Shown here piece after piece: positions 12,547 to 41,686 of a DNA stretch of 64,000 bases (position 1 is the first letter of the stretch; each line of letters begins with the position of its first letter). Origin of the DNA: an uncultured beta proteobacterium (GTDB lineage: Bacteria; Pseudomonadota; Gammaproteobacteria; Burkholderiales; SG8-39). The DNA lies in assembly GCA_963832685.1 (NCBI GenBank), contig CAWHUZ010000001.1, forward strand, positions 291,051 to 355,050, read 5' to 3'. A program made the translations under genes and the position numbers. The notes under the pieces were generated by a model that searched no databases, was not told the DNA's origin, and worked only from the letters and a program-made list of their open reading frames with translations.

Positions 12547-12636
12547 CTGACCCTCCTTGCGCTCGATCGGTCCGATGGCCGTCTGACGTTGGCTGAATGC
12601 CTATAGGGCCATTATCGTCATCACGCTGCGAGTCTC

Positions 12637-12717: not shown

Positions 12718-13165
12718 ATGCAGGCAATCTCTCTCGAACGCCCGGGGCTCGCGCAGAACGCCGTTGTCTCATTGCTGACATTCGCCGCGCTCGCGCTGCT
12801 GGCACTGGTGCTGGCGTACTGGACCTGGGCCTGGCTCGCCCCGCGCCCGGAGCCGCGCGCGCAGGCGGCGCTGCACGCGGGCGGCGGGGCGCAAGCCGCG
12901 TACGGCCTGTTCGGCAGCGCGCGACACGGCGCGCGGCGCGCCGACGGGGCTCGCGCTCGAGCTGCTCGGCGTGGTGGCCGCCTCGGGCGACCAGCCGGGC
13001 TACGCGGTGCTGCGGCTGGACGCGAAGCAAAGCGTCGCGGTGCGCGAAGGGGAAGAGATCGAACCGGGCGTTCGCCTGGCGGAGGTCGGCGTGGACGACG
13101 TGGTGCTGGAGCGCGGTGGCGTGCGCGAGACGCTCGCCTGGCCGAAACAGGGCAAACAGGAGTGA
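12718..13165 (+). CDS. gspC: Type II secretion protein C (frameshift near 12930-12950)
   Basis: TM LAYWTW then LELLGVVA...[22 protein letters not shown] in another frame. Confidence 0.75.
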
Positions 13166-13166
13166 C

Positions 13167-15235
13167 ATGCGAATTCGCTGGTTTCGGGCTGCAATCCTGT
13201 CGCTGGCCGCTGGCGGCCTGCGCCGGCCGGGCATGGTCGGCAAACGCCGATCTGGTCACGCTCAACTTCGTCAATGCCGACATCGAGGGCGTGGTCAAGG
13301 CGGTAAGCGAGATCACGGGCAAGAACTTCGTGCTCGATCCGCGCGTCAAGGGCACGCTCAACATCGTCTCGGCAAGGCCGGTACCCAGGTCGCTCGTATA
13401 CGACGTTTTTCTGGCCGCCCTGCGCGTGCATGGCTTCGCGGCGATCGAGGATCGCGGGATCGTTCAGATCGTTCCCGAGGCCGACGCCAAGTTGTACCCG
13501 AGCCCGACCCGCGGCCCGCAGGACAAGGCGCGCGCCGCCGGCGACCGGATCCAGACGCAGGTGTTCACGCTCAAATACGAATCGGCGGCGCAACTGGTGC
13601 CGGTATTGCGCCCGCTGGTGGCGCCCAACAACCCCATCACCGCGTACCCGGCCAGCAACTCGCTGGTGGTGACCGACTATGCCGGCAATCTGGCGCGCAT
13701 CGAGAAGATCATCGACGCGATCGATCAGCCCAGCGGCAGCGAGCCGGTTGTGATTCCGCTTCGCTACGCCTCGGCGCTCGATGTCGCGCTTACGGTCAAC
13801 AAACTGTTTGCGGAGACAACGGCGGCGCGCACTGCGGCGACGGCCAACCCGGCGCAGCAAATGACCGTGGTCGCCGACCCGCGCTCGAACAGCCTGATCG
13901 CGCGTTCCGACGACGCGCAGAAGCTCGCACGCCTGCGCAGCCTGGTCGCCGTGCTGGATTCGCCCACCAGCGCCGCCGGCAACATCCACGTGGTGTACCT
14001 CAAGAACGCGGAGGCGGTGAAAGTCGCCGAAACGCTGCGCGCGATCTACAGCGGCAATGCCGCGCCGGCGGCGCCGGGTGCGAGCGCCGCTGCCGCTTCA
14101 CCCCTGGCGCCGCCCGCGAGCGGCGCCGGCGCCAGCGCCTCGCCGATGAGCGCGTCGTTCAACTCGTCCTCGCGGGCGGCGCCGGAAACCGCGTCCGCGC
14201 CCGGCATCATCCAGGCCGACGCCGCCACCAATTCGATCATCATCAACGCGCCGGACGCGATCTACAACAATCTGCGCGCGGCGCTCGACAAGCTCGACGT
14301 GCGCCGGGCGCAGGTCTACGTCGAGGCGCTGATCGCCGAGATCACCTCCGACAAGGCGGCGGAGTTCGGCATCCAGTGGCAGAACCTCAGCGGCGCGGGC
14401 GCGACCGACTCGAGCGCGCGGGGCTTCGGCGGCACCAATTTCGGCGGCACCGGGCAGAACATGCTCGGCATCTCGCAGAACCCCGCCTCGGCCGGGCAGG
14501 GGCTGAACGTCGGCGTGATCAAGGGCCACGTCACCATTCCCGGGGTGGGCGAGATCCTCAACCTCGGCGTGCTGGTGCGGGCGCTGGAGACCGACAGCAA
14601 CGCCAACATCCTGTCCACGCCGACGCTGCTGACGCTGGACAACGAGGAGGCGAAGCATCGTGATCGGCCAGAACGTGCCGTTCATCACCGGCCAGTACGC
14701 TCTCACCGGCGCGGCCACCACGCCGACGCCGTTCCAGACCATCGAGCGGCACGACGTCGGCCTGACGCTCAGGATCAAGCCGCAGATCTCCGAGGGCGGC
14801 ACGGTGCGGCTGCAGATCTACGAGGAGGTGTCGAGCATCGATCCGACCAGCGTCAACAATGCCGCCGGGCTGATCACCAAGAAGCGCGCGCTCGAATCGA
14901 CGGTGCTGGTCGACGACGGGCAGATCGTCGTCATCGGCGGACTGCTGCAGGACACGGTCACGGACGGCGAGCAGAAGGTCCCGCTGCTGGGCGACATCCC
15001 GCTGCTCGGCGGCCTGTTCCGCTACAAGACGCGCGAGCATGCCAAGACCAACCTGATGCTGTTCCTGCGCCCGGTGGTGCTGCGGGACGCCCGCAGCGCC
15101 GATTCGATCGCCAGCGAGCGCTACGACTACATCCTGGGCGAGCAGCGCAAGTCGAAGCCGGCCCCGAGCGCCGTGCTGCCCGACATGGATCCGCCCACCC
15201 TGCCGCCTTACTCGATGTGGAACCTGCCGCGTTGA
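13167..15235 (+). CDS. gspD: Secretin GspD (frameshifts near 13215 and 14655)
   Basis: [63 protein letters not shown]. Confidence 0.93.
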
Positions 15236-16673
15236 TCCGTCCGCCGGCAACGGTGTCCTACGCCTTCGCCAGGGCGAACGGTGTGGCGGTCACGACGCTC
15301 GACGCCGAGGCGGCGCAAGTCGCGGTGCGCGAGGGCGCTCGCGCGGGCGCGCTGGCCGAGCTGCGCCGCGCGCTCGGCGTCCCTCTGCGTGCGCGGCGCG
15401 TCGGCGCCGAGGAGTTCGACCAGCTGCTGGCCGCGCTGTACAACGGCGCCGACGGCGGCGCGGCGGCGCTTGCCGGCGACCTGGCGCAGGACATCGATCT
15501 GTCCCGACTGCTGCAGGAAATCCCCAAGATCGAGGATCTGCTCGAGAGCCAGGACGACGCGCCGGTCATCCGCCTGATCAACGCGCTGCTGACCCAGGCG
15601 CTGCGCGAGGGCGCCTCCGACATACACATCGAGCCGTTCGAAACGCGCTTGCTGGTGCGCCTGCGCATCGACGGCACTTTGCGCGACCTGATCGAGCCGG
15701 CGCAGGCGCTGCATGCGGCCATCGTGTCGCGGGTCAAGATCATGGCGCAGCTCGACATCGCCGAAAAGCGCCTGCCGCAGGACGGCCGCATCACGCTGCG
15801 CGTGGCGGGCAAGCCGGTCGACGTGCGGGTGTCGACCATCCCCACCGGGCACGGCGAGCGCGTGGTGCTGCGCCTGCTCGACAAGCAGGCCGGGCGGCTC
15901 GACCTGTCCCGCCTGGGGATGGACGAGGCCACGCTCGCGCACATGGACAGGCTGGTCAGCGAGCCGCACGGCATCGTGCTGGTCACCGGCCCGACCGGCT
16001 CGGGCAAGACCACCACGCTTTACGCCGCGCTGGCGCGGCTCGACGCCAGCGCGCTGAACATCATGACGGTCGAGGATCCGATCGAGTACGACCTCGACGG
16101 CATCAGCCAGACCCAGGTCAACACCCGGATCGAGATGAGCTTCGCGCGCGCGCTGCGCACCATCCTGCGCCAGGACCCGGACGTGGTCATGATCGGCGAG
16201 ATCCGCGACCTCGAGACCGCGCAGATCGCGGTGCAGGCGAGCCTCACCGGCCACCTGGTGTTCGCCACGCTGCACACCAACGACGCGGTGAGCGCGGTCA
16301 ACCGCCTGGTCGACATGGGCGTGGAGCCGTTCCTGCTCGCCTCCAGCCTGATCGGCGTGGTGGCGCAGCGCCTGGTGCGCCGGCTGTGCCTCGAATGCCG
16401 CAAGCCGTTCGTGCGCGACGGCACGACGTTCTACGCGCCGCAGGGCTGCGCGGCCTGCAACCGACTCGGGCTATCGCGGCCGCACCGGCATCTACGAGCT
16501 GCTCACGGTCGACGACGAATTGCGCCGGCTGATCCACGACCGCGCCTCGGAGGCGGCGCTGCGCGACGCACGCGCTCGCGCACGGCATGCGCTCGCTGCG
16601 CGACGACGGCATGCGCTGGGCGCAGCAGGGCGTCATCAGCCTGGAAGAAGTGGTGCGCGTGACGCGCGAATAG
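15217..16673 (+). CDS. gspE: T2SS ATPase GspE (frameshifts near 3' end; start approximate)
   Basis: [45 protein letters not shown], CxxC. Confidence 0.95.
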
Positions 16674-18008: not shown

Positions 18009-18767
18009 GTGCCCACCATTCCTACGACTACAAGCCAAACCCGTCACGCAAAGCCGTCGCCGCTGCAGAACCACCTGCTTACTGCGCTGCCGCCAGCCGA
18101 TTACGAGCGCATGCTGCCGCAGCTGGAAGCGACATCATTGAAGCTCGGCAGCGCGCTGTACGAATCCGGCAGCCCGCAGGGTTACGTGTATTTTCCCACC
18201 GCCAGCATCGTGTCGCTGCTGTACGTGATGGAAGACGGGTCCTCGGCGGAAATCGCGGTCGTGGGCAATGAGGGCGTGGTGGGCCTGGCGCTTTTCATGG
18301 GCGGCGAGACCACCCCGAGCCGCGCGGTGGTGCAAAGCGCCGGCGAAGCCTACCGGCTCAGGGCGGGCGTTCTGAAATCCGAATTCAGCCGGGGCGGGGA
18401 ACTGCAGCACCTGCTGCTGCGCTACACCCAGGCCCTGATCACGCAGATGGCGCAGACCGCGGTCTGCAACCGGCACCACTCGGTCGAGCAGCAGCTGTGC
18501 CGTTGGCTGTTGCTGAGCCTGGACCGGCTGCCCACCAACGAGCTGAGCATGACTCAGGAGTTGATCGCCAATATGCTGGGGGTGCGCCGCGAGGGCGTGA
18601 CCGAGGCGGCCGGCAAGCTGCAGGAGGCGGGGCTGGTGCGCTACAGCCGCGGCAGGATCACCGTGCTCGACCGTCCGAAACTGGAAGCACGGGTTTGCGA
18701 GTGCTACTCCGTGGTGAAGCGCGAATACGACCGCTTGCTGGTCGGGATCGGGGCCGCCGCGGCCTAG
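18009..18767 (+). CDS. Crp/Fnr-family regulator, paralog 1
   Basis: NHLL.ALP, VGNEGVVG, CNRHH.VEQ.LCRWLL, HTH TQELIANMLGVRREGVTEAA, C-term CECY. Confidence 0.93.
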   Translation: MPTIPTTTSQTRHAKPSPLQNHLLTALPPADYERMLPQLEATSLKLGSALYESGSPQGYVYFPTASIVSLLYVMEDGSSAEIAVVGNEGVVGLALFMGGETTPSRAVVQSAGEAYRLRAGVLKSEFSRGGELQHLLLRYTQALITQMAQTAVCNRHHSVEQQLCRWLLLSLDRLPTNELSMTQELIANMLGVRREGVTEAAGKLQEAGLVRYSRGRITVLDRPKLEARVCECYSVVKREYDRLLVGIGAAAA

Positions 18768-24491: not shown

Positions 24492-24502
24492 TGGTTCTCG
24501 TG

Positions 24503-24537
24503 AAAGGGCCCGGAACGAGACTTCCGTTGCCGGGCCC
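24503..24537 (-). terminator. Putative terminator hairpin after collagen gene
   Basis: GGGCCCGG-AACG...CGTT-G-CCGGGCCC then TTT on minus strand. Confidence 0.55.
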
Positions 24538-24568
24538 GGTTGCTTGCTGCGAAGCTACTGCCGCTGAG

Positions 24569-25515
24569 TTATTGCTTGCCGACCAGGACCTCGACCCGGC
24601 CGTCGCGCTGCGCTTGCGGATCGCCGAAGGCGCCGGTCTGGATCTTGTAGGCCGGCACGCCGGCGTCGAGCAGAGCCGTGCGCACGCTATTGATGCGGCG
24701 ATTGCTCAGGTCAACGTTGTTCGAGTCGATCGAGCCATCGATGGCGACCTGTTGGCCGGGGTTCTGGTTCAGGTAACCGGCGATGTCCGACGCCTTGCCG
24801 GAATCGGCAGCGCGCAGATCCGACCGGTCGATATCGAACCAGTAGTCCCTGAACGGCGTCCAGCCGCTAACCGCTCCGCCCGGGCCTTGCGCACCGGTCT
24901 GGCCGATTGCGCCTTGAGGGCCGGCGGCACCGGTGCGACCCGTCGGGCCGACAAACCCCAACAGATTGGCGTTGCCCTGCGCACCGGTATATCCGGTTGC
25001 GCCTTGCGCGCCGGTGGCACCCGTTGCGCCGACCGGTCCGGTCGGACCGACCTGGGTCGGGCCTTCCGCGCCCGTGCTCCCGATTACGCCCTGGATGCCC
25101 GAGGCTCCGGTCGCGCCCGTCGCGCCGGCAGGTCCGGGCAGACTTTCGCCCTGGACGCCCGTCGCGCCGGTCATGCCTTGCGCGCCCGTTGCGCCGGTTG
25201 CGCCGACCGGGCCGGCACGCCCAACGACCCACCTGCCTTCACTTCCCGTGGCTCCGGTCGGACCTTGAATGCCGGCAGGGCCGGTTGCGCCGGTCGCGCC
25301 GACCGGTCCGGCCATTGCATAGCCGGTCGCGCCAGTGGCGCCGGTGGCGCCTTGTTGCCCGGTGGCGCCGGTGGCGCCGGTGGGGCCTGCGGGTCCGACG
25401 TAGCTTACCGGCGGCGGACAGACTCTTGCGTCGCGGGTTGAGTCGTGCTGCATCCCGCCGCGAACAGCCCGATAACCGCGAGCGCCAGCGTACTTTTGAT
25501 CATTACTCGTTTCAT
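24569..25515 (-). CDS. Collagen-like lipoprotein with C-terminal OmpA-like domain (frameshift near 25425)
   Basis: [22 protein letters not shown] lipobox in adjacent frame; long interrupted Gly-X-Y; C-term FD.DRSDL...[14 protein letters not shown]...RVEV. Confidence 0.8.
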
Positions 25516-35086: not shown

Positions 35087-35311
35087 TCACTGCCGCGAGA
35101 CGGTCTTCCAGTCGCGGTTTCGGTTGATGAAGTCCGCCAGTTGTCGATCGGCCTGCTGCAGCAGGGTGCCGCGCCGCGCCTCGATCCTGCCCGCGAGTTG
35201 GTCGCGCCTGCCGGCGGCTGCCGTGAGCGGATCGCCGATCAGTTCGCCCCAGCGTTCAGTCACCATCCCGCCGAGCTGCCGGCAGATGCCGTAAATGCGA
35301 ACCCGATTCAC
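35087..35311 (-). CDS. CsbD/YjbJ-like protein
   Basis: NRVRIYG..RQLGG.V.ERWGEL..D......GRRDQLAGRI. Confidence 0.75.
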   Translation of the reverse strand: MNRVRIYGICRQLGGMVTERWGELIGDPLTAAAGRRDQLAGRIEARRGTLLQQADRQLADFINRNRDWKTVSRQ

Positions 35312-35380
35312 CCTGCCTCCCAGTCGCGTACCGCAATTTGAATGGATGCGCGAATCCTGTTCCGTCTGGAACCATCATTC

Positions 35381-35396
35381 TGTACGTTGCCGTACA
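35381..35396. promoter_or_regulatory. Perfect box TGTACG-TTGC-CGTACA; bidirectional promoter
   Basis: CAGGAT (minus 35359-35354), TAGCCT (plus 35417-35422). Confidence 0.8.
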
Positions 35397-35429
35397 TACG
35401 CTGCCGATATTCGAATTAGCCTTGCGGCC

Positions 35430-36290
35430 ATGCTCGCGCCCCGCGCCCTGAACAGCCTGCTCGCCGCCCTGCCTGGCAGGGAATACCGGCGGCTGCTGGC
35501 CGCACTCGAGCCGGTCACGCTGACCTTCGGCGATGTGCTCTACGAGCCGGGCGACACGATCCGCCAGGTGTACTTTCCCGGTACTTCCCTGGTGTCGCTG
35601 CTCACGCTGGCGGACGGCCACCTGGCACTCGAAGTCGGCCTCATCGGCCGCGACGGGGTGGTTGGAATTCCACTCATGCTGGGGCACGACGTGTCGGCTG
35701 TGCGCGCCCTGGTGCAGGGTACGGGGTCGGCGATGCGGATCGCGGCGGCGCCGTTCCTGAAGGAGTTCCGGCGCAGCCCGCCGCTGCAGCGCGAGTTGTA
35801 CCGCTACACCTATACCTTGATGGCGCAGATCTCGCAGACCGCCGCGTGCAACCGGTTCCACGTGGTGGAGGAGCGTCTCGCGCGCTGGCTGCTGATGACC
35901 CACGACCGGGTGAAATCGGATCGATTCCGGCTGACGCACGAATTCCTCGGCCATATGCTGGGCGTGCGGCGGGTGGGCGTCACCAAGGCGGCGCAGGCGC
36001 TGCAGGAGCGCAAGCTGATCAGCTACAGCCGCGGCGACATCACGGTGCTCGACCGCGCCGGGCTGGAGGCGACCGCTTGCGCGTGCTACGAAGTGGTCAA
36101 GGACATGCACGACGGAGCGCGGGTCGATCACGCGGCAACCGAAACGCCTGTCGCGCGCGGCGGCATGAGACGAGCCCAGCCCGCGTGCCCCGGCGGCTCC
36201 GATCAGGAACAGCATCCTGGCGGCGCTCTTTGCCACCGAGTACAGGCGCCTGCTGCCCAAGCTCGAGCACGTGACATGGAAGCGCGGTGA
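35430..36290 (+). CDS. Crp/Fnr-family regulator, paralog 2 (true 3' end uncertain; domain ends near 36110)
   Basis: NSLLAALP, IGRDGVVG, ACNRFH.VEERLARWLL, THEFLGHMLGVRRVGVT, CACY. Confidence 0.9.
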   Translation: MLAPRALNSLLAALPGREYRRLLAALEPVTLTFGDVLYEPGDTIRQVYFPGTSLVSLLTLADGHLALEVGLIGRDGVVGIPLMLGHDVSAVRALVQGTGSAMRIAAAPFLKEFRRSPPLQRELYRYTYTLMAQISQTAACNRFHVVEERLARWLLMTHDRVKSDRFRLTHEFLGHMLGVRRVGVTKAAQALQERKLISYSRGDITVLDRAGLEATACACYEVVKDMHDGARVDHAATETPVARGGMRRAQPACPGGSDQEQHPGGALCHRVQAPAAQARARDMEAR

Positions 36291-36898
36291 GACGGTGTAT
36301 CGGGCGGATCAGAAGATCGACGCGGTGTACTTTCCCGAGGACGCTGTGGTGGCCATGGTCGACACCACGGACGACGAACGTACGGTCGAGGTCGGCGTCA
36401 TCGGCCGCGAAGGGATCGTGGGCATTAACATCTTCCTGGGCGGCGTCGTCACGCCCGACAGGGCGATCGTGCAGCTGCCAGGCGGCGCGATGAGGATGAA
36501 GTCGGAAGACTTGCGCAAGGAGCTGCGTTTCGGCAGCCCGATTCAGCGACTGCTTCTGAACTACACCCGGAGCTTCGTTGCGGTGATCAGCCAATCGGTG
36601 GCCTGCAGCCAGCACCACGACATCGAGCAGCGGGTGGCGCGCTGGCTGCTCACCATGAGCGACTATGCCGGCTCGCGCGAGCTTGTGATGTTGCAACAAT
36701 CGATTGCCGACATGCTCGGGGTGCGTCGCGTAGGCGTTAGCGAGGCTGCGGGCAGGCTGCATGCGGCCGGATTGATCAGCTACCGCCGCGGCCGAATAAG
36801 CATTCTCGACCGGACGGGCCTGGAGAAGCGCTCCTGCGAGTGCTATCGGTTCATCAGGCAGCAGTACGACTCACTGCGCAGCGGGCGTCCGCCGCTAG
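36165..36898 (+). CDS. Crp/Fnr-family regulator, paralog 3 (both ends affected by indels)
   Basis: NSILAAL, IGREGIVG, ACSQHH.IEQRVARWLL, IADMLGVRRVGVSEAA, CECY. Confidence 0.85.
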
Positions 36899-37608
36899 GT
36901 CTTCTTGTAGCTGCGGCGGTACAACTGCCTGACCTTCGCGTAGCACTCGCATGCGGCGGCTTCGAGACCCGCTGGATCGAGCAGCTGGATATTGCCGCGG
37001 CTGTAGGTAATCAGCCGGCGTCGCTGAAGACTGGAAGCCGCCGCCGTGACGCCGACGCGTCGTACGCCCAGCATGAGCGAGATGAACTTTTGCGTGAGAT
37101 GGAAATGGTCGGAATGCACGCGGTCGCGGATCGCCAGCAGCCAGCGGGCAAGGCGCGCTTCGACGTTGTGGAAGCGGTTGCAAACCGCCGTTTGCGAGGT
37201 CTGGTGCATAAGCGCGTTAGTAAAGCGGTACAACTCGCGATACCACGAAACGCTCGCTCCCAACTCCTGTTGCAGTCGCGAAGACGCTATGCGTGCTGCC
37301 GTGCCGGCTCCCTGCACCACGGCCCGCAGGTGCGAGATATCGGTGCCAAGCACCACGGCCGCGCCGACCACGCCTTCATTGCCGACCACCCCGACTTCGG
37401 CCGTTTTGCCCGGACCGGCCATGGTGAGCAAGGAAATCACGCCGCTATACGGGAAATAGACATGCCGTATGCGAACACCGGGTTCGAACAGTACCTGTCC
37501 GAAAGCCAGCGACACGGGCTTGAGATATTGCGCCAGGCGCCGGTAATCGCGCCGCGGCAGTGCGGCGAGCAGGCGATTTTCGGCAGGCGATTTGGCTGCA
37601 GCTTGCAT
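36895..37608 (-). CDS. Crp/Fnr-family regulator, paralog 4
   Basis: NRLLAALP, VGNEGVVG, VCNRFH.VEARLARWLL, TQKFISLMLGVRRVGVT, CECY. Confidence 0.92.
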   Translation of the reverse strand: MQAAAKSPAENRLLAALPRRDYRRLAQYLKPVSLAFGQVLFEPGVRIRHVYFPYSGVISLLTMAGPGKTAEVGVVGNEGVVGAAVVLGTDISHLRAVVQGAGTAARIASSRLQQELGASVSWYRELYRFTNALMHQTSQTAVCNRFHNVEARLARWLLAIRDRVHSDHFHLTQKFISLMLGVRRVGVTAAASSLQRRRLITYSRGNIQLLDPAGLEAAACECYAKVRQLYRRSYKKT

Positions 37609-37711
37609 GACTTCCCGCTTGGGTATTCCAACTCCGCCTCATCGAGGCCCACTCGGGCTTCAACGCCGAGTGCGCGGGAGTATAGGTTTATATTGCAAAA
37701 ACAAGAACTTA

Positions 37712-37727
37712 TGTTCGGTATCGGACC
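37712..37727. promoter_or_regulatory. Box TGTTCG-GTAT-CGGACC upstream of Crp paralog 4
   Basis: Variant box; TAAACCT on minus strand at 37690-37684. Confidence 0.6.
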
Positions 37728-37770
37728 TATCGACGGTCAGGCGCTTCGCTCGCGCGCGTCTCGTCGGTGC

Positions 37771-37965
37771 CTACTTGTTGTCGCCCTTGGCTGCGTCCTG
37801 GACGCTTTCACCGGCCTTCTCGATTTGCTTTCCGGCCGAGTCCATCGCCTTATCGACTTGCTTTCCGGCGTGCTCGGCAGGGCCCTCTTTCTGGGGGCAG
37901 CCGACCAGGCCCAGCATCAGCGCGCTTGCGGCCAATGCGCTCACCACGTTGTAGGCGAGTTTCAT
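37771..37965 (-). CDS. Small lipoprotein (YtxH/Entericidin-like helical stress lipoprotein)
   Basis: LVGC lipobox; KEGPAEHAGKQVDKA...AG..IE.AG. Confidence 0.8.
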   Translation of the reverse strand: MKLAYNVVSALAASALMLGLVGCPQKEGPAEHAGKQVDKAMDSAGKQIEKAGESVQDAAKGDNK

Positions 37966-37968
37966 GCT

Positions 37969-38127
37969 TCATACCCTGCCGAGCAGGAACAGGATCAGGA
38001 TCACCACCAAGATCACGCCGACAATGCCGCTCGGCGCATAACCCCATTGCCTACTGTGCGGCCAGGTCGGAATCACGCCGATCAGTGCCAGCACCAGGAC
38101 AATCAGCAGTATCGTTCCCAACGTCAT
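37969..38127 (-). CDS. DUF3309-like small membrane protein (52 aa, not in ORF track)
   Basis: MTLGTILLIVLVLALIGVIPTWPHSRQWGYAPSGIVGVILVVILILFLLGRV; RBS GAGGAG. Confidence 0.9.
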   Translation of the reverse strand: MTLGTILLIVLVLALIGVIPTWPHSRQWGYAPSGIVGVILVVILILFLLGRV

Positions 38128-38138
38128 ATCGTTTCTCC

Positions 38139-38618
38139 TCAGTAGCGGCGCATCACGCCGTTGTCGATCCGTACCCGGTCGCCGACTCTGAATTCCGCGT
38201 TCGAACTCAGCATCAGCATCTGGTATGAGCCGTTCTCCATGCGGATGCTGAAGCGATACGCATCCGCGGTCTGTAGCGATTGCTTCTCCATCTGGTGCCC
38301 GACGTAGGCGCCGCCCGCGGCGCCGGCGACCGTCGCCGCTGTATTACCGGTGCCTTGCCCGACCTGGTGGCCGAGGACGCCGCCGATGACCGCTCCGGCG
38401 ATGGTGCCCGCACCCAGGCCGCTGCCGCCGATGCCGCCGCTGTCTCCCTTCACAACGTCGATCGATTGAACTACGCCGTATCCCGAGTTGACGCTTACCG
38501 GGCCGCTGGCGGCGGGACTTGAGGCGGGCGAGGCCTGCTGGTTCATGCTGCCGCATGCGCCCAGCGCGATCGCAGCCGCCAAGCCAAGCGCCGGTCCGAA
38601 TCGAGTCATCGTGCTCAT
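38139..38618 (-). CDS. Glycine-zipper 2TM lipoprotein (SlyB-like)
   Basis: LGAC lipobox; GVVQSI, GAVIGGVLGHQVGQGTG.TAATVAGAAGGA. Confidence 0.85.
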   Translation of the reverse strand: MSTMTRFGPALGLAAAIALGACGSMNQQASPASSPAASGPVSVNSGYGVVQSIDVVKGDSGGIGGSGLGAGTIAGAVIGGVLGHQVGQGTGNTAATVAGAAGGAYVGHQMEKQSLQTADAYRFSIRMENGSYQMLMLSSNAEFRVGDRVRIDNGVMRRY

Positions 38619-38701
38619 GGCTGTTCCTCTGGGTTGCTCGGCAGATAAAGAAGGCGGCTGCAACGGCGTTGCCATTATGGGACGGTTCGCCGGCAGCAAT
38701 C

Positions 38702-38717
38702 TGTACGGTATCGAACA
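38702..38717. promoter_or_regulatory. Box TGTACG-GTAT-CGAACA
   Basis: CATAAT (minus 38679-38674). Confidence 0.75.
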
Positions 38718-38718
38718 C

Positions 38719-38755
38719 AAAGAAAAGGCCCGGAACAGGATCGCCGTTCCGGGCC
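38719..38755 (-). terminator. Intrinsic terminator of candidate sRNA
   Basis: 10-bp GC stem followed by U tract. Confidence 0.75.
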
Positions 38756-38799
38756 CGGTACTTCAGGTGTTCGTCAGGGGAGGAGGAGCGCGAACACCT
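38719..38799 (-). ncRNA. Candidate ~80-nt sRNA with CU-rich anti-SD loop (cuckoo-like)
   Basis: 9-bp stem AGGUGUUCG/CGAACACCU enclosing CGCUCCUCCUCCCCUGA; then terminator GGCCCGGAAC/GUUCCGGGCC-UUUUCUUU; own box and CAAGAT -10. Confidence 0.72.
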
Positions 38800-38832
38800 A
38801 GCGACATCTTGCGCCGGTGTTCGAATCCGTTC

Positions 38833-38848
38833 TGTGCGGCACCGCACT
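38833..38848. promoter_or_regulatory. Box TGTGCG-GCAC-CGCACT upstream of the candidate sRNA
   Basis: Centre at -41.5 relative to 38799; CAAGAT at minus 38811-38806. Confidence 0.75.
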
Positions 38849-38916
38849 TAAAGAAGATGAATTTGCGCCTGGCTTATGGCCTCATGCGGACCGGCCTCGC
38901 CTCTCCCGGCGTTGCG

Positions 38917-39150
38917 TTATCTGCGCCGATGATCGCCGGTGTCGACCTGATTGCCGATCACGCCGCCGACCGCTGCGCCGCCGATGGTGCCGATCGCGCT
39001 GCCGCCGGTGAGGATGGAACCCCCCACGGCGCCGACCCCGGCGCCGACCGCGGTGTTCTGGTCGCGCTGTGACATCCCGCTGCACCCGCCCGCGCCGAGC
39101 AGCACCGCCGCCGCGAGCGCACCGAATGCGTACCTTTGCATCGTTTTCAT
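38917..39150 (-). CDS. OsmB-like glycine-zipper lipoprotein
   Basis: AGGC lipobox; MSQRDQNTAVGAGVGAVGGSILTGGS.IGTIGGAAVGGVIG. Confidence 0.87.
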   Translation of the reverse strand: MKTMQRYAFGALAAAVLLGAGGCSGMSQRDQNTAVGAGVGAVGGSILTGGSAIGTIGGAAVGGVIGNQVDTGDHRRR

Positions 39151-39205
39151 TGGAAGACCTCGTTCAGACATCGATTGACTGCAATGACTTGTTTGCTCCG
39201 GACGC

Positions 39206-39783
39206 TCAGCCGTTGGACTGGATGACGCCGTTCACGACTCTTACCTTGTCGCCCGCCCGCCACGACGGCGCGTTCGCCTCGCTGATCGCGCGGCTTGAGC
39301 CGTCGTCGAAGCGCACCGTGGTCTCGTAGCTCTTGGTTGACTTGACGCGTTTCTCGACCTCGTTGCCGGCAACCGCTCCGCCGACTGCGCCGACCACGGT
39401 CATGAGCTGCTTGCCGCGGCCGCCGCCGACCTGGTTGCCGAGCACGCCGCCCACCACCGCTCCGCCGGCCGCGCCAAGGCCGGAGCCCTCGCCCTTCACG
39501 CTCGACCTCGCGCACCGACTCGACCACGCCGCATTCGGCGCACTGGGTTCTCGCCTGCGCGGGCGCGCTGCTCGCCACCCGCGCCGGGGCCGCACGCGCT
39601 TTCGCAGCGCGCCGGCTCCGGAGCGTTTGCCGCCTGTGTCGCGAGCACCGCGTTGTCGTCAGCACCGCCCATCGAGGTCGGAATCCAGCCCATGAAGGCG
39701 CCGATGCCGACCGCGCTGAACACGATCAACGCGATACCCGCGATCCAGACCAGCGGGTGAAGCGATTTTGTGGTCTGTTCCAC
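39206..39783 (-). CDS. Glycine-zipper 2TM membrane protein (frameshifted)
   Basis: LHPL.WIAG TM; CAECGVVESVR; GAVVGGVLGNQVGGGRG...TVVGAVGGA.AGNEVEK. Confidence 0.82.
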
Positions 39784-39797
39784 GTGTGCTTCGCTCG

Positions 39798-40493
39798 CTA
39801 CTGCGCGGCCCGGGTACCGATCACTTCGACCTCGACCCGACGATCAGGTTGCAGGCAGGCGATGAGCTTCTTGCTCTTGCCGCCCACGCATTCGCCGGCT
39901 TTCGTCACCGGCTGCGATTCGCCCATGCCTTCGGCGCGTACGTTACCCGGCTCGATTCCCTTGGCAACCAGATAGTCCTTCACCGACGCGGCGCGTTGCT
40001 CCGACAGGCGCTGGTTGTATTTGTCGCTGCCTATGCGGTCGGTATGCCCGACGACCGTGATCGTCTGGAGGTCGGCGCCCTGGAACTTGCCCATGAAGGC
40101 ATCCAGAGCATCCCGGCCTTTCGGACGCAGGACCGCCTTGTCGAAGTCGAACAGCGCGTCGGCGTCCAGCGCCACCCGTTCGCGCACCGATCTGCGGCGC
40201 CGGCGGGGGGGGCCGGCGACCGGAGCTGCTTGCGCCACGGGGGCGGGGGCGGGGGCGACGACCTGCGCCACCGGCTGCGGTCCGCAGGGGGTACCCGGCA
40301 GGGGCGGCGGGCCGAAATCGCTGCGCCAGCAAAGGCCGTTGTCGTTCATCCAGACCATCTGTGCCGGACCGCTTACGATTGCTCTCTGGTCGACCGGCAA
40401 GGTCTGCGCGCTTGCCGTTCCGGACATGATGCCGAGTGCCAGCGCGCACGCTGCCGCGAGGCCGAGTTGCTTTCTGCTAAATGAGGGTTTCAT
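39798..40493 (-). CDS. OmpA/RmpM-like peptidoglycan-binding protein (linker probably has indels)
   Basis: Signal peptide, GLCWR, ADALFDFDKAVL, GHTDRIGS..YNQRLSEQRA, ACLQPDRRVEVEV. Confidence 0.9.
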   Translation of the reverse strand: MKPSFSRKQLGLAAACALALGIMSGTASAQTLPVDQRAIVSGPAQMVWMNDNGLCWRSDFGPPPLPGTPCGPQPVAQVVAPAPAPVAQAAPVAGPPRRRRRSVRERVALDADALFDFDKAVLRPKGRDALDAFMGKFQGADLQTITVVGHTDRIGSDKYNQRLSEQRAASVKDYLVAKGIEPGNVRAEGMGESQPVTKAGECVGGKSKKLIACLQPDRRVEVEVIGTRAAQ

Positions 40494-40619
40494 GGTGTCT
40501 CTCGTTGAATAAGTAGTACTCGATCCGCCTTGTTGCTTCCGTTCATCTGACTGCCAGCAAAAGCGGAAAAATACTGACCGGTCGATTGCCGTAGCATCGG
40601 CTCGTGGCCGCCGGCGGTC

Positions 40620-40942: not shown

Positions 40943-41686
40943 CTATCCGGCCGCGGCCGCGATGCCCTGGCGGTGGCGCACGTCTGACAGCAGGCGGCCG
41001 AGTTCCGTCTTGACCACCGCGTAGCACTCGCAGGCACGGGTCTCCAGCCCGGCGCGCTCGAGCACTGCGATGTGCCCGCGCCGATAGCGGATGATGCCGG
41101 CGCGCTGCAGGGCGCCGGCCGCTTCCGTTATCCCTTCCCGGCGCACGCCGAGCATGCTCGCGACCAGTTCCTGCGTCATGACGAGCTCGCGCTCGGGCCC
41201 ACGATCGAGGGTCAGTAGCAGCCAGCGGCACAGCTGCTGCTCGACCGAATGGTGCCGATTGCAGGCCGCGGTCTGGATCATCTGCGTGATCAGCGCCTGG
41301 GTGTAACGCAGCAACAGGCGCTGCATCGGGCCCGCGCGGATGAATTCCTGCTTCAGCAGGCGCCCTTCCAGCCGGTAGCCGTGGCCCGCGGTCTGCACCA
41401 CGGCCGAGCTCGGCGTGCTGTCTCCGCCCATGAAGAGCGCGATGCCGACCACGCCCTCGTTACCCACTCCCGCGGTCTCGGCCGATGCGCCGGACTCCAT
41501 GACATAGTGCAGCGAGACGATGGCGCTGGTGGGGAAGAACGCGTGCTGCATGCGTCCGCCGGGCTCATAAAGAATGTCGCCGAGCGGCATTTCGACCAGC
41601 TCCAGGTATGGGGCCAGGCGCGCGAAATCCGCCTCGGGCAGTGCGGCGAGCAGGTGGTTCTGGTTCGGGCTGTGGAGGGATGCCAT
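40943..41686 (-). CDS. Crp/Fnr-family regulator, paralog 5
   Basis: QNHLLAALP, VGNEGVVG, ACNRHHSVEQQLCRWLL, TQELVASMLGVRREGITEAA, CECY. Confidence 0.93.
   Translation of the reverse strand: MASLHSPNQNHLLAALPEADFARLAPYLELVEMPLGDILYEPGGRMQHAFFPTSAIVSLHYVMESGASAETAGVGNEGVVGIALFMGGDSTPSSAVVQTAGHGYRLEGRLLKQEFIRAGPMQRLLLRYTQALITQMIQTAACNRHHSVEQQLCRWLLLTLDRGPERELVMTQELVASMLGVRREGITEAAGALQRAGIIRYRRGHIAVLERAGLETRACECYAVVKTELGRLLSDVRHRQGIAAAAG

Follow-up and report, generated by a model that had tools for sequence, protein, structure and literature searches.

A probable small-RNA gene with a Crp/Fnr-type box and a C/U-rich, anti-Shine-Dalgarno-like loop in uncultured soil Burkholderiales

The DNA analyzed here (the window) is a stretch of 64,000 nucleotides from the metagenome-assembled genome (MAG) of an uncultured beta proteobacterium (GTDB lineage Burkholderiales; SG8-39; assembly GCA_963832685.1, contig CAWHUZ010000001.1); the MAG has 3.36 Mb in 30 contigs and is 86.6% complete. 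We examined a locus on the minus strand of the window that the initial annotation had read as an unannotated small RNA (sRNA) gene. The evidence described below indicates that it is very probably a real gene, in uncultured soil Burkholderiales, for a regulatory RNA of about 80 bases that a Crp-like regulator would turn on as part of a stress regulon. The features of the locus are as follows.

38833-38848, minus strand: Crp/Fnr-type palindromic box AGTGCGGTGCCGCACA, 16 bp, read from the sequence (extended 20-mer, 38831-38850)
38806-38811, minus strand: -10-like hexamer CAAGAT (family consensus, nATGAT)
38765-38799, minus strand: stem-loop 1, with a 9-bp stem, based on fold and covariation
38791-38799, minus strand: 5' arm of stem 1, AGGUGUUCG, which pairs with the 3' arm
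38774-38790, minus strand: loop CGCUCCUCCUCCCCUGA, 17 nt
38778-38786, minus strand: anti-Shine-Dalgarno core CCUCCUCCC in the loop, found by motif search
38765-38773, minus strand: 3' arm of stem 1, CGAACACCU, which pairs with the 5' arm
38716-38756, minus strand: intrinsic terminator found by terminator scan, with its hairpin at 38726-38756 and a U-rich tail at 38716-38725

The box, the CAAGAT hexamer, and a predicted transcription start (+1) at 38799 that is the first base of the 9-bp stem are all present on the minus strand, as the initial annotation had described. The hexamer is separated from box AGTGCGGTGCCGCACA by a spacer of 21 bp, and the predicted +1 lies 7 nt past the final T of CAAGAT. 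The linker between stem-loop 1 and the terminator hairpin is GAAGUACC. The terminator and its U tract were also recovered, but with a stem of 13 bp rather than the 10 bp first reported: the scan gives 13 pairs, 9 of them G-C, around a CGAUC loop, followed by UUUCUUUGUG. The 3' end of the RNA is predicted at approximately 38718-38722, for a length of ~78 to 82 nt. An 85-nt RNA from this locus folds at -39.2 kcal/mol (z = -4.93), a stability reached by 0 of 200 shuffled sequences, and the C/U run of the loop is unpaired in the minimum-free-energy structure. The nonamer CCTCCTCCC by itself is unremarkable in the 64-kb window (1 match versus 0.52 expected; at least 1 match in 39 of 100 shuffles). 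What exceeds chance is conservation, in the form of three copies, 42 covarying homologs, and a fixed distance to the box. We rejected the reading of this element as a small open reading frame (ORF), for which the window copy offers a GUG at +3 and 7 codons to a UGA in the loop, because the copy on contig C3 has a 2-nt insertion and loop length ranges from 8 to 42 nt among homologs.

The complete unit of box, -10 hexamer, stem-loop, and terminator is present in three copies in the MAG, on contigs C1 (the window copy), C3, and C10, and each copy adjoins Crp/Fnr-family genes. The C3 copy is 91% identical to the window copy and likewise lies behind an osmB-like gene, and the C10 copy is more diverged than the C3 copy. 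BLAST alone detected the unit in just 4 of 39 relatives besides its own genome, and we therefore used a covariance model (R1, built from six sequences; the refined model is R2). When 150 genomes sampled from the source's GTDB family were searched with R1, matches were found in 50 at E ≤ 0.01 and in 37 at E ≤ 1e-5, the latter in 15 of 34 genera and including one unpublished genome (G080). Since some weak matches are bare terminators, which inflates the tally of 50, we use the count of 37. The matches rejected as terminators only are window positions 24495-24570, contig C29 of genome G004, and the class-level loci L117 and L118. At the order level, there are matches in 4 of ~60 other families (6 of 151 genomes, including the source's own family). 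At the class level, R2 matches 2 of 150 genomes, both at terminators behind unrelated genes. A degenerate-pattern search of genome contigs returned 55 stretches; 12 matches, spread over 10 loci, were confirmed by the covariance model, and the remaining 45 stretches arise by chance in unrelated phyla. All named records with confirmed copies are MAGs labeled "uncultured beta proteobacterium," "Burkholderiales bacterium," or "uncultured Sideroxydans sp.," which agrees with the betaproteobacterial context proposed in the initial annotation.

Several relatives show variant arrangements. Tandem sRNA siblings, each with its own box, occur in L032, L041, and L050. In L107 (genome G205), which comes from a different family of the order, two hairpins follow a BON gene, and the box is displaced upstream by one hairpin. 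L106 (genome G229), also from another family of the order, is a box-less form that begins 11 nt after a csbD stop codon and resembles an sRNA from a 3' untranslated region (3' UTR). Near-identical terminator hairpins, GGGCCCGG-AACGG...CGUUCCGGGCC, are present on the minus strand of the window at 24495-24570 and in L017 at 769-817. The genes before these two terminators have C-terminal coding sequences that are alike, and the sRNA stem-loop is absent at both sites, so that this recurring hairpin looks like a shared terminator module.

Conservation and covariation of the stem and loop were found in the relatives. For this analysis we removed 3 reverse-strand terminator matches from alignment A3, and the resulting alignment of 42 homologs (A5) was fitted to R1. 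In A5, 96.6% of 878 cells form standard pairs, and 16 of 21 base pairs have changes on both sides. Helix 1 has such changes in 8 of 9 pairs, with 97.1% of its cells paired, and helix 2, the terminator, has them in 8 of 12 pairs. None of 500 column shuffles reaches any of the five observed covariation measures, and pairing falls to 27 to 52% when the partners are slid by 1 to 3 columns as a control. The loops of the 42 homologs vary in length from 8 to 42 nt and are on average 79% pyrimidine: CCUCC is present in 38, CUCCC in 37, CUCCUCCC in 23, and the exact CCUCCUCCC in 10. The commonest short loop form in the family is GCUCCUCCCUGA. An unpaired loop that is conserved in sequence and framed by covarying stems is characteristic of a base-pairing seed.

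The position of the box is fixed with respect to the RNA. Box AGTGCGGTGCCGCACA is centered 41.5 bp before 38799, and a box core with at least 9 of 12 matches is centered exactly 41.5 bp before the first stem base in 36 of the 42 homologs. When the 70 nt upstream of 38 homologs are aligned, two conserved islands stand out amid variable sequence. One is T-N-TGTGCG-N4-CGCACA-G-A, which contains the family consensus of the box, TGTGCG-N4-CGCACA. The other is the hexamer nATGAT, in which position 2 is A in 37 of 38 homologs and position 6 is T in 37 of 38; the first base of the stem follows its final T at a distance of 7 nt and is a purine in 37 of 38. Exceptions to the box position are L032:548, which has a 10-nt insertion; L036, which is shifted by 1 bp; L039, with only a weak match at -41.5; L050:1334, with 8 of 12 matches at -41.5; the two-hairpin form L107; and the box-less L106. 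A consensus scan of 38500-39000 found no pair of sigma-70 -35 and -10 elements, as expected of an activator-dependent promoter. A predicted dimer site at -41.5 without a -35 hexamer is the textbook class II Crp/Fnr arrangement, with the start placed by the -10 hexamer. The claim of an independent sRNA gene with its own box is thus borne out: the promoter is of the activator type and, like the C/U loop, conserved; the stem covaries, and a terminator is present.

The same box recurs around the locus and precedes a characteristic set of genes. The flanking genes and other box-associated features are as follows.

38917-39171, minus strand: upstream gene, OsmB-like glycine-zipper lipoprotein of 84 aa (Pfam PF05433)
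38700-38719, minus strand: second box TGTGTTCGATACCGTACAGA, with a position weight matrix (PWM) score of 25.9, beginning within the U tail of the sRNA terminator
38139-38618, minus strand: downstream gene, glycine-zipper 2TM lipoprotein (PF05433 on the longer ORF 38139-38720)
35311-34263: a CsbD-like gene and two BON (OsmY-like) genes, box preceded

The motif GTGC-N6-GCAC is enriched in the window (10 occurrences versus 3.2 expected), and 0 of 100 shuffles reach 10. With a symmetric PWM made from the sRNA boxes and a cutoff of ≥14 bits, the 3.36-Mb genome contains 37 sites, of which 18 are in the window and the rest are clustered on contigs C3, C10, C13, and C16. The sRNA box scores 22.9. The second box serves the downstream lipoprotein gene, which has a CATAAT hexamer at a suitable distance (38674-38679), an ATG at 38618-38616, and a lipobox LGAC and signal peptide read from the sequence. 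A second box likewise follows the sRNA copies on C3 (C3:66868) and C10 (C10:7633), and the sRNA gene is therefore wedged between two box promoters in all three copies. The upstream OsmB-like protein scores 83.3 bits with the NCBIfam OsmB equivalog model, below the cutoff of 98, and at 9 of 38 homolog loci the sRNA is immediately preceded by a homolog of this gene. Other box-preceded genes in the window encode OsmB-like, another glycine-zipper, OmpA-family, MlaC-like, M48 peptidase, and ice-binding-like proteins, a PAS hybrid histidine kinase, and Crp/Fnr paralogs. Taken as a set, these genes are reminiscent of the osmotic or stationary-phase stress genes of other bacteria. No RpoS was found above the TIGR02394 cutoff in the MAG, whose completeness of 86.6% means that absence is not shown; the best matches to the RpoS model reach 277 bits for a frame of 780 aa and 171 bits for one of 316 aa.

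One further high-scoring box, at 12635, is just upstream of a 1,314-codon frame on the plus strand (12718-16662) that joins secretin N-terminal domains (GspD N0 and Secretin_N) to a type II secretion system ATPase domain (T2SSE). This frame may be two genes without an intervening stop codon or an unusual fusion.

The window contains five Crp/Fnr paralogs, which are candidates for the regulators that bind the box.

36895-37608, minus strand: Crp/Fnr paralog (PF13545 and PF00027), with a box upstream at 37710-37729
35295-36290, plus strand: Crp/Fnr paralog (PF13545/PF00027)
36271-~36960, plus strand: Crp/Fnr paralog (PF13545/PF00027)
40943-41686, minus strand: Crp/Fnr paralog (PF13545/PF00027)
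18009-18767, plus strand: Crp/Fnr paralog (PF13545/PF00027)

These proteins are 42 to 55% identical to one another, and their helix-turn-helix (HTH) reads GVRRxG(V/I)T. Cys185, His189, Cys262, and Cys264 (numbered as in the first sequence of alignment A4; the last two form Cys-x-Cys) are invariant among them, and the Cys/His-bearing paralogs may form a subfamily that senses redox state or metals. The three paralogs scanned stay below the cutoff of every NCBIfam model; the only match is NtcA, at 31.7 bits versus a cutoff of 245. The source genome has 12 paralog matches at E ≤ 1e-35 and 15 matches to HTH_Crp_2 above its cutoff, 10 of which neighbor the three sRNA copies. Of 38 homolog loci, 22 have a paralog gene no more than 1.5 kb from the sRNA. 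At E ≤ 1e-35, a paralog is present in 78 of the 150 family genomes, with 35 of the 37 robust sRNA-positive genomes having one versus 43 of the 113 others, in a sample in which related genomes are not independent. We give no P value for this co-occurrence because relatedness inflates such tables. The two sRNA-positive genomes without a paralog belong to one genus and have a variant box. The PWM scan, the linkage, and the co-occurrence together show that the box regulon and its tie to Crp/Fnr paralogs, which the initial annotation had described as Crp control, are real.

The plus-strand Crp-like gene at 36271 has its cyclic nucleotide-binding and HTH domains in the first 190 residues, and its frame stays open for 624 codons (36271-38145). 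This long frame runs antisense through the convergent paralog at 36895-37608 on the minus strand, and RNA-library contigs cover 37700-38127.

Public sequence data provide a weak hint that the sRNA is transcribed. Twenty public runs contain parts of 37600-40600, and we mapped four RNA-library runs (X1, X2, X4, and X12), all as contigs. The contig pieces are 90 to 99% identical to the window and so come from relatives. In these soil RNA libraries, the depth of the bin 38711-38811, which holds the sRNA, is 18.9 in X1, 18.9 in X2, 31.2 in X4, and 0 in X12. The adjacent bin 38610-38710 has no cover in X1, X2, or X4, which in contig data is not evidence of absence. One X4 contig joins 38723 to 38127 with 29 other letters between them and has a second junction at 38835/38918. 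The relative from which it comes keeps the sRNA, lacks the downstream lipoprotein gene (595 bp), and has a shorter spacer before the box, which appears to point to gene-content flux around a conserved sRNA.

Candidate targets come from complementarity to the loop. Ten that lie in translation initiation regions (TIRs) were annotated: a classical CRP-type regulator (C1:289432, just outside the window), a short-chain dehydrogenase/reductase, a catechol dioxygenase, a CoxM-like flavoprotein, a succinyl-CoA-ligase-like protein, TrpD, a hydrolase, and three without a family, all by complementarity only.

Based on these results, we propose, with a probability of roughly 0.7, that a Crp/Fnr paralog activates the sRNA together with a stress regulon and that the loop masks the Shine-Dalgarno sequences of target messages and represses their translation. 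An own promoter, an intrinsic terminator, a covarying structure, and a conserved single-stranded seed were all found, as for a trans-acting sRNA. Transcription of the ~80-nt RNA would start at the first base of stem-loop 1 (38799), from a promoter without a -35 element that would require class II activation by a dimer of a Crp/Fnr paralog on TGTGCG-N4-CGCACA at -41.5. This box would also drive the nearby osmB-, osmY (BON)-, csbD-, ompA-, mlaC-, and M48-peptidase-like genes and the paralog genes themselves, and because the box is common to all of these, the sRNA would be expressed alongside an envelope, osmotic, or general stress regulon. The 9-bp stem would present the C/U loop CUCCUCCUCCCC in single-stranded form, with the terminator and its U tail after it. 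The loop shares its sequence logic with the 3' end of 16S rRNA: it probably mimics the sequence with which the ribosome docks on mRNA, and by pairing with purine-rich Shine-Dalgarno regions (GGAGG and extensions) it would block translation initiation. As long as the stress regulon is active, a group of messages, probably metabolic ones, would be tuned down, and the sRNA would be a post-transcriptional repressor arm of the regulon, as the initial annotation had suggested. The anatomy of the locus, its three copies, its distribution, the covariation, the loop conservation, the fixed box position, and the paralog linkage and co-occurrence are direct observations. From them we infer the transcription start, the identity of the activator and its signal, target pairing, and repression.

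Several points weigh against this proposal. Alignment A5 was fitted to the model, which favors the structure, and homolog L106, 11 nt after the csbD stop codon, has no box. The RNA-library contigs show no RNA ends, bridge into neighboring genes, and could include DNA carry-over; moreover, the X1 and X2 tables are identical and may be one data set filed twice, and X12 has a depth of 0 on the sRNA bin. There is no terminator between the osmB-like gene and the sRNA, so part of the RNA could result from read-through and processing. The complementarity scan gave 208 sites of at least 9 contiguous nt, many of them intragenic, and no statistically tested target set, and comparison of the TIRs of the paralog genes with the loop showed no consistent complementarity.

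The most serious competitor, although an improbable one, is that the RNA is not mainly a primary transcript but a piece of the 3' UTR released by processing of the osmB-like (or csbD-like) mRNA. The sole terminator in 38500-39000 follows the sRNA, so the upstream gene must read into it; L106 has the placement expected of such a fragment, and CcsR RNAs arise in this way from the ccaF1 cotranscript in Rhodobacter. However, the upstream genes differ among loci, and, amid variable flanks, the spacing of box and -10 hexamer from the stem is constant in 36 of 42 homologs. It is plausible that read-through and processing of the osmB-like transcript contribute alongside the sRNA's own promoter, as the two routes are not exclusive. 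We consider it quite unlikely that the C/U loop, instead of pairing with mRNA, is a decoy that attracts an RNA-binding protein (e.g., ribosomal protein S1 or another pyrimidine binder). The pyrimidine content of the loop is kept more than its exact sequence, its length is loose, and the RNA is multicopy and sometimes in tandem, all of which would suit a decoy, but the CCUCC and CUCCC cores in 38 and 37 of 42 homologs are what is expected of an anti-Shine-Dalgarno seed; no candidate protein was identified, and an excerpt of PMC5688073 interprets related CU-rich sRNAs as binders of ribosome-binding sites. Least credible of all is that the element acts in cis on the downstream lipoprotein gene, as its leader or attenuator, or is just a terminator beside a chance hairpin. 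In the window the sRNA does lie between two co-oriented genes of the same regulon, but the downstream gene has its own box and -10 hexamer past the terminator, and 8 of the 9 pairs of stem 1 covary. At 23 of 39 loci, the closest ORF downstream has a convergent orientation (by a heuristic that takes the longest ORF and misses small genes), and for this reason we do not regard the sRNA as a leader.

The initial annotation called the RNA cuckoo-like, and the possibility that it genuinely belongs, whether by descent or by transfer, to the alphaproteobacterial cuckoo/ar14 family (CcsR1-4 of Rhodobacter and NfeR1 of Sinorhizobium) must be weighed as well. The likeness stands insofar as CCUCCUCCC is unpaired in a hairpin loop here as it is there, and the best Rfam match of the window is ar14 (RF02344), with E = 3.4e-4 over the full model length; the two-hairpin variant L107 in another family of the order also favors membership. 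As excerpted, PMC4615179 further describes cuckoo RNAs as stress linked, multicopy, sometimes in tandem, and downstream of a small stress-related gene. But the ar14 match is 32.6 bits, well under the gathering score of 58.8, a search with ar14 of 20 homolog loci gave no match at E ≤ 0.01, and the exact motif is in just 10 of 42 homologs. In the same excerpt, members of the family display CCUCCUCCC in every loop of 2 to 4 adjacent hairpins, compared with one motif hairpin and a terminator here, and its 321 RNAs in 78 genomes are restricted to alphaproteobacteria and are mostly beside one conserved small gene (PMC4615179). Cuckoo RNAs have a DUF1127 (CcaF1) neighbor and, in Rhodobacter, use an RpoHI/HII promoter, whereas a search for DUF1127 (PF06568) in the source MAG (86.6% complete) found no match and the sRNA neighbors are OsmB-like/glycine-zipper genes. 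Membership in cuckoo/ar14 is therefore improbable, and the likeness reads as convergence or shared constraint.

A wider interpretation goes beyond the proposal of a box-activated, Shine-Dalgarno-masking sRNA, and we offer it tentatively, as somewhat doubtful. The RNA would be the riboregulatory arm of a general, osmotic, or envelope stress response that is under the control of an expanded set of Cys/His-bearing Crp/Fnr paralogs rather than a dedicated sigma factor, the modules would have been duplicated together, and the anti-Shine-Dalgarno loop would have arisen independently of cuckoo as a global throttle on strongly Shine-Dalgarno-dependent mRNAs. The sRNA and the regulator occur jointly in three islands in the MAG, and tandem siblings occur in relatives. 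The main proposal amounts to a testable circuit in abundant uncultured soil Burkholderiales, in which a paralog would drive both stress proteins and a translation-masking sRNA, and the covariance model and box matrix are directly usable to annotate these genomes.

The Rfam search supported the unannotated status of the RNA: at gathering thresholds, no family matches in the window, and no description of the family or its box was found in the literature or in Rfam 15, the supplementary files of papers not being covered. The closest known relatives, which the initial annotation did not name, are anti-hemB/ncS04 and the double-hairpin "toxic" sRNAs such as ncS27. Anti-hemB (RF02837) was proposed as a betaproteobacterial noncoding RNA (excerpt of PMC1950547) and is given as another name for ncS04, an expressed sRNA of Burkholderia cenocepacia (PMC5688073, Table 1, as excerpted). 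Like our RNA, it is betaproteobacterial, with a 5' hairpin and a terminal terminator. Its loop is UCUCCUCCCUGA, compared with the family consensus loop GCUCCUCCCUGA and the window loop CGCUCCUCCUCCCCUGA. The loop core CUCCUCCC..UGA is common to both families, which possibly reflects a distant common origin, but the stems, the spacing, and the middle hairpin differ. The anti-hemB model has no match in 38400-39200 even at E ≤ 10, and its best score among the homologs is 31.6 bits for L106 (gathering score, 49.5). The MAG has a canonical anti-hemB gene elsewhere, at C24:468573-468663 (74.4 bits, the only above-threshold match in the genome), which R2 does not find at E ≤ 1. In contrast to our RNA, this gene has an extra middle hairpin, and no Crp-type box is seen in the 100 nt before it. 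The genomic context of our sRNA is one of osmB-, BON-, or Crp-paralog genes.

The "toxic" sRNAs of RF02278 (ncS03, ncS05, and ncS27) are, in an excerpt of PMC5688073, multicopy double hairpins with CU-rich stretches predicted to cover ribosome-binding sites; an upstream motif is common to 3 of the 4 B. cenocepacia homologs, and overexpression of ncS27 slows growth (PMC5688073). They share with our family the multiple copies and the CU-rich unpaired stretches complementary to ribosome-binding sites but carry such stretches on both hairpins, in RNAs of ~60 to 90 nt. RF02278 has no match in the window (gathering score, 50 bits), and the MAG's single canonical gene of this family is at C1:57362-57424 (69.6 bits). 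The MAG has at least five CU-rich-loop sRNA genes, including the canonical anti-hemB and RF02278 genes. Judged by sequence features, the box-driven RNAs are a putative third family of the same functional kind as anti-hemB and RF02278.

With respect to transcriptional input, FnrS of Escherichia coli, AniS of Neisseria, and PhrS of Pseudomonas are sRNA arms of Crp/Fnr-type regulons and are activated from a site near -41.5. They differ from our family in having FNR/ANR-type boxes and other RNA sequences and seeds and in responding to anaerobiosis, whereas the coregulated genes here look osmotic or envelope related. We rejected the lxa low-oxygen locus of B. cenocepacia as more than a conceptual analogue, since its motif, TGA-N6-TCA (excerpt of PMC3721108), differs from the TGTGCG-N4-CGCACA box. 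Taken together, these comparisons make the family read as a previously undescribed one of the CU-rich anti-Shine-Dalgarno kind, with a new regulatory input and found mainly in one uncultured soil Burkholderiales family. It would be the third separately modeled family of this kind in Betaproteobacteria, and one tied to a readable transcriptional input, a 16-bp box at a fixed class II position. It would also provide a clean case for the question of whether anti-Shine-Dalgarno sRNAs have converged between Alphaproteobacteria and Betaproteobacteria.

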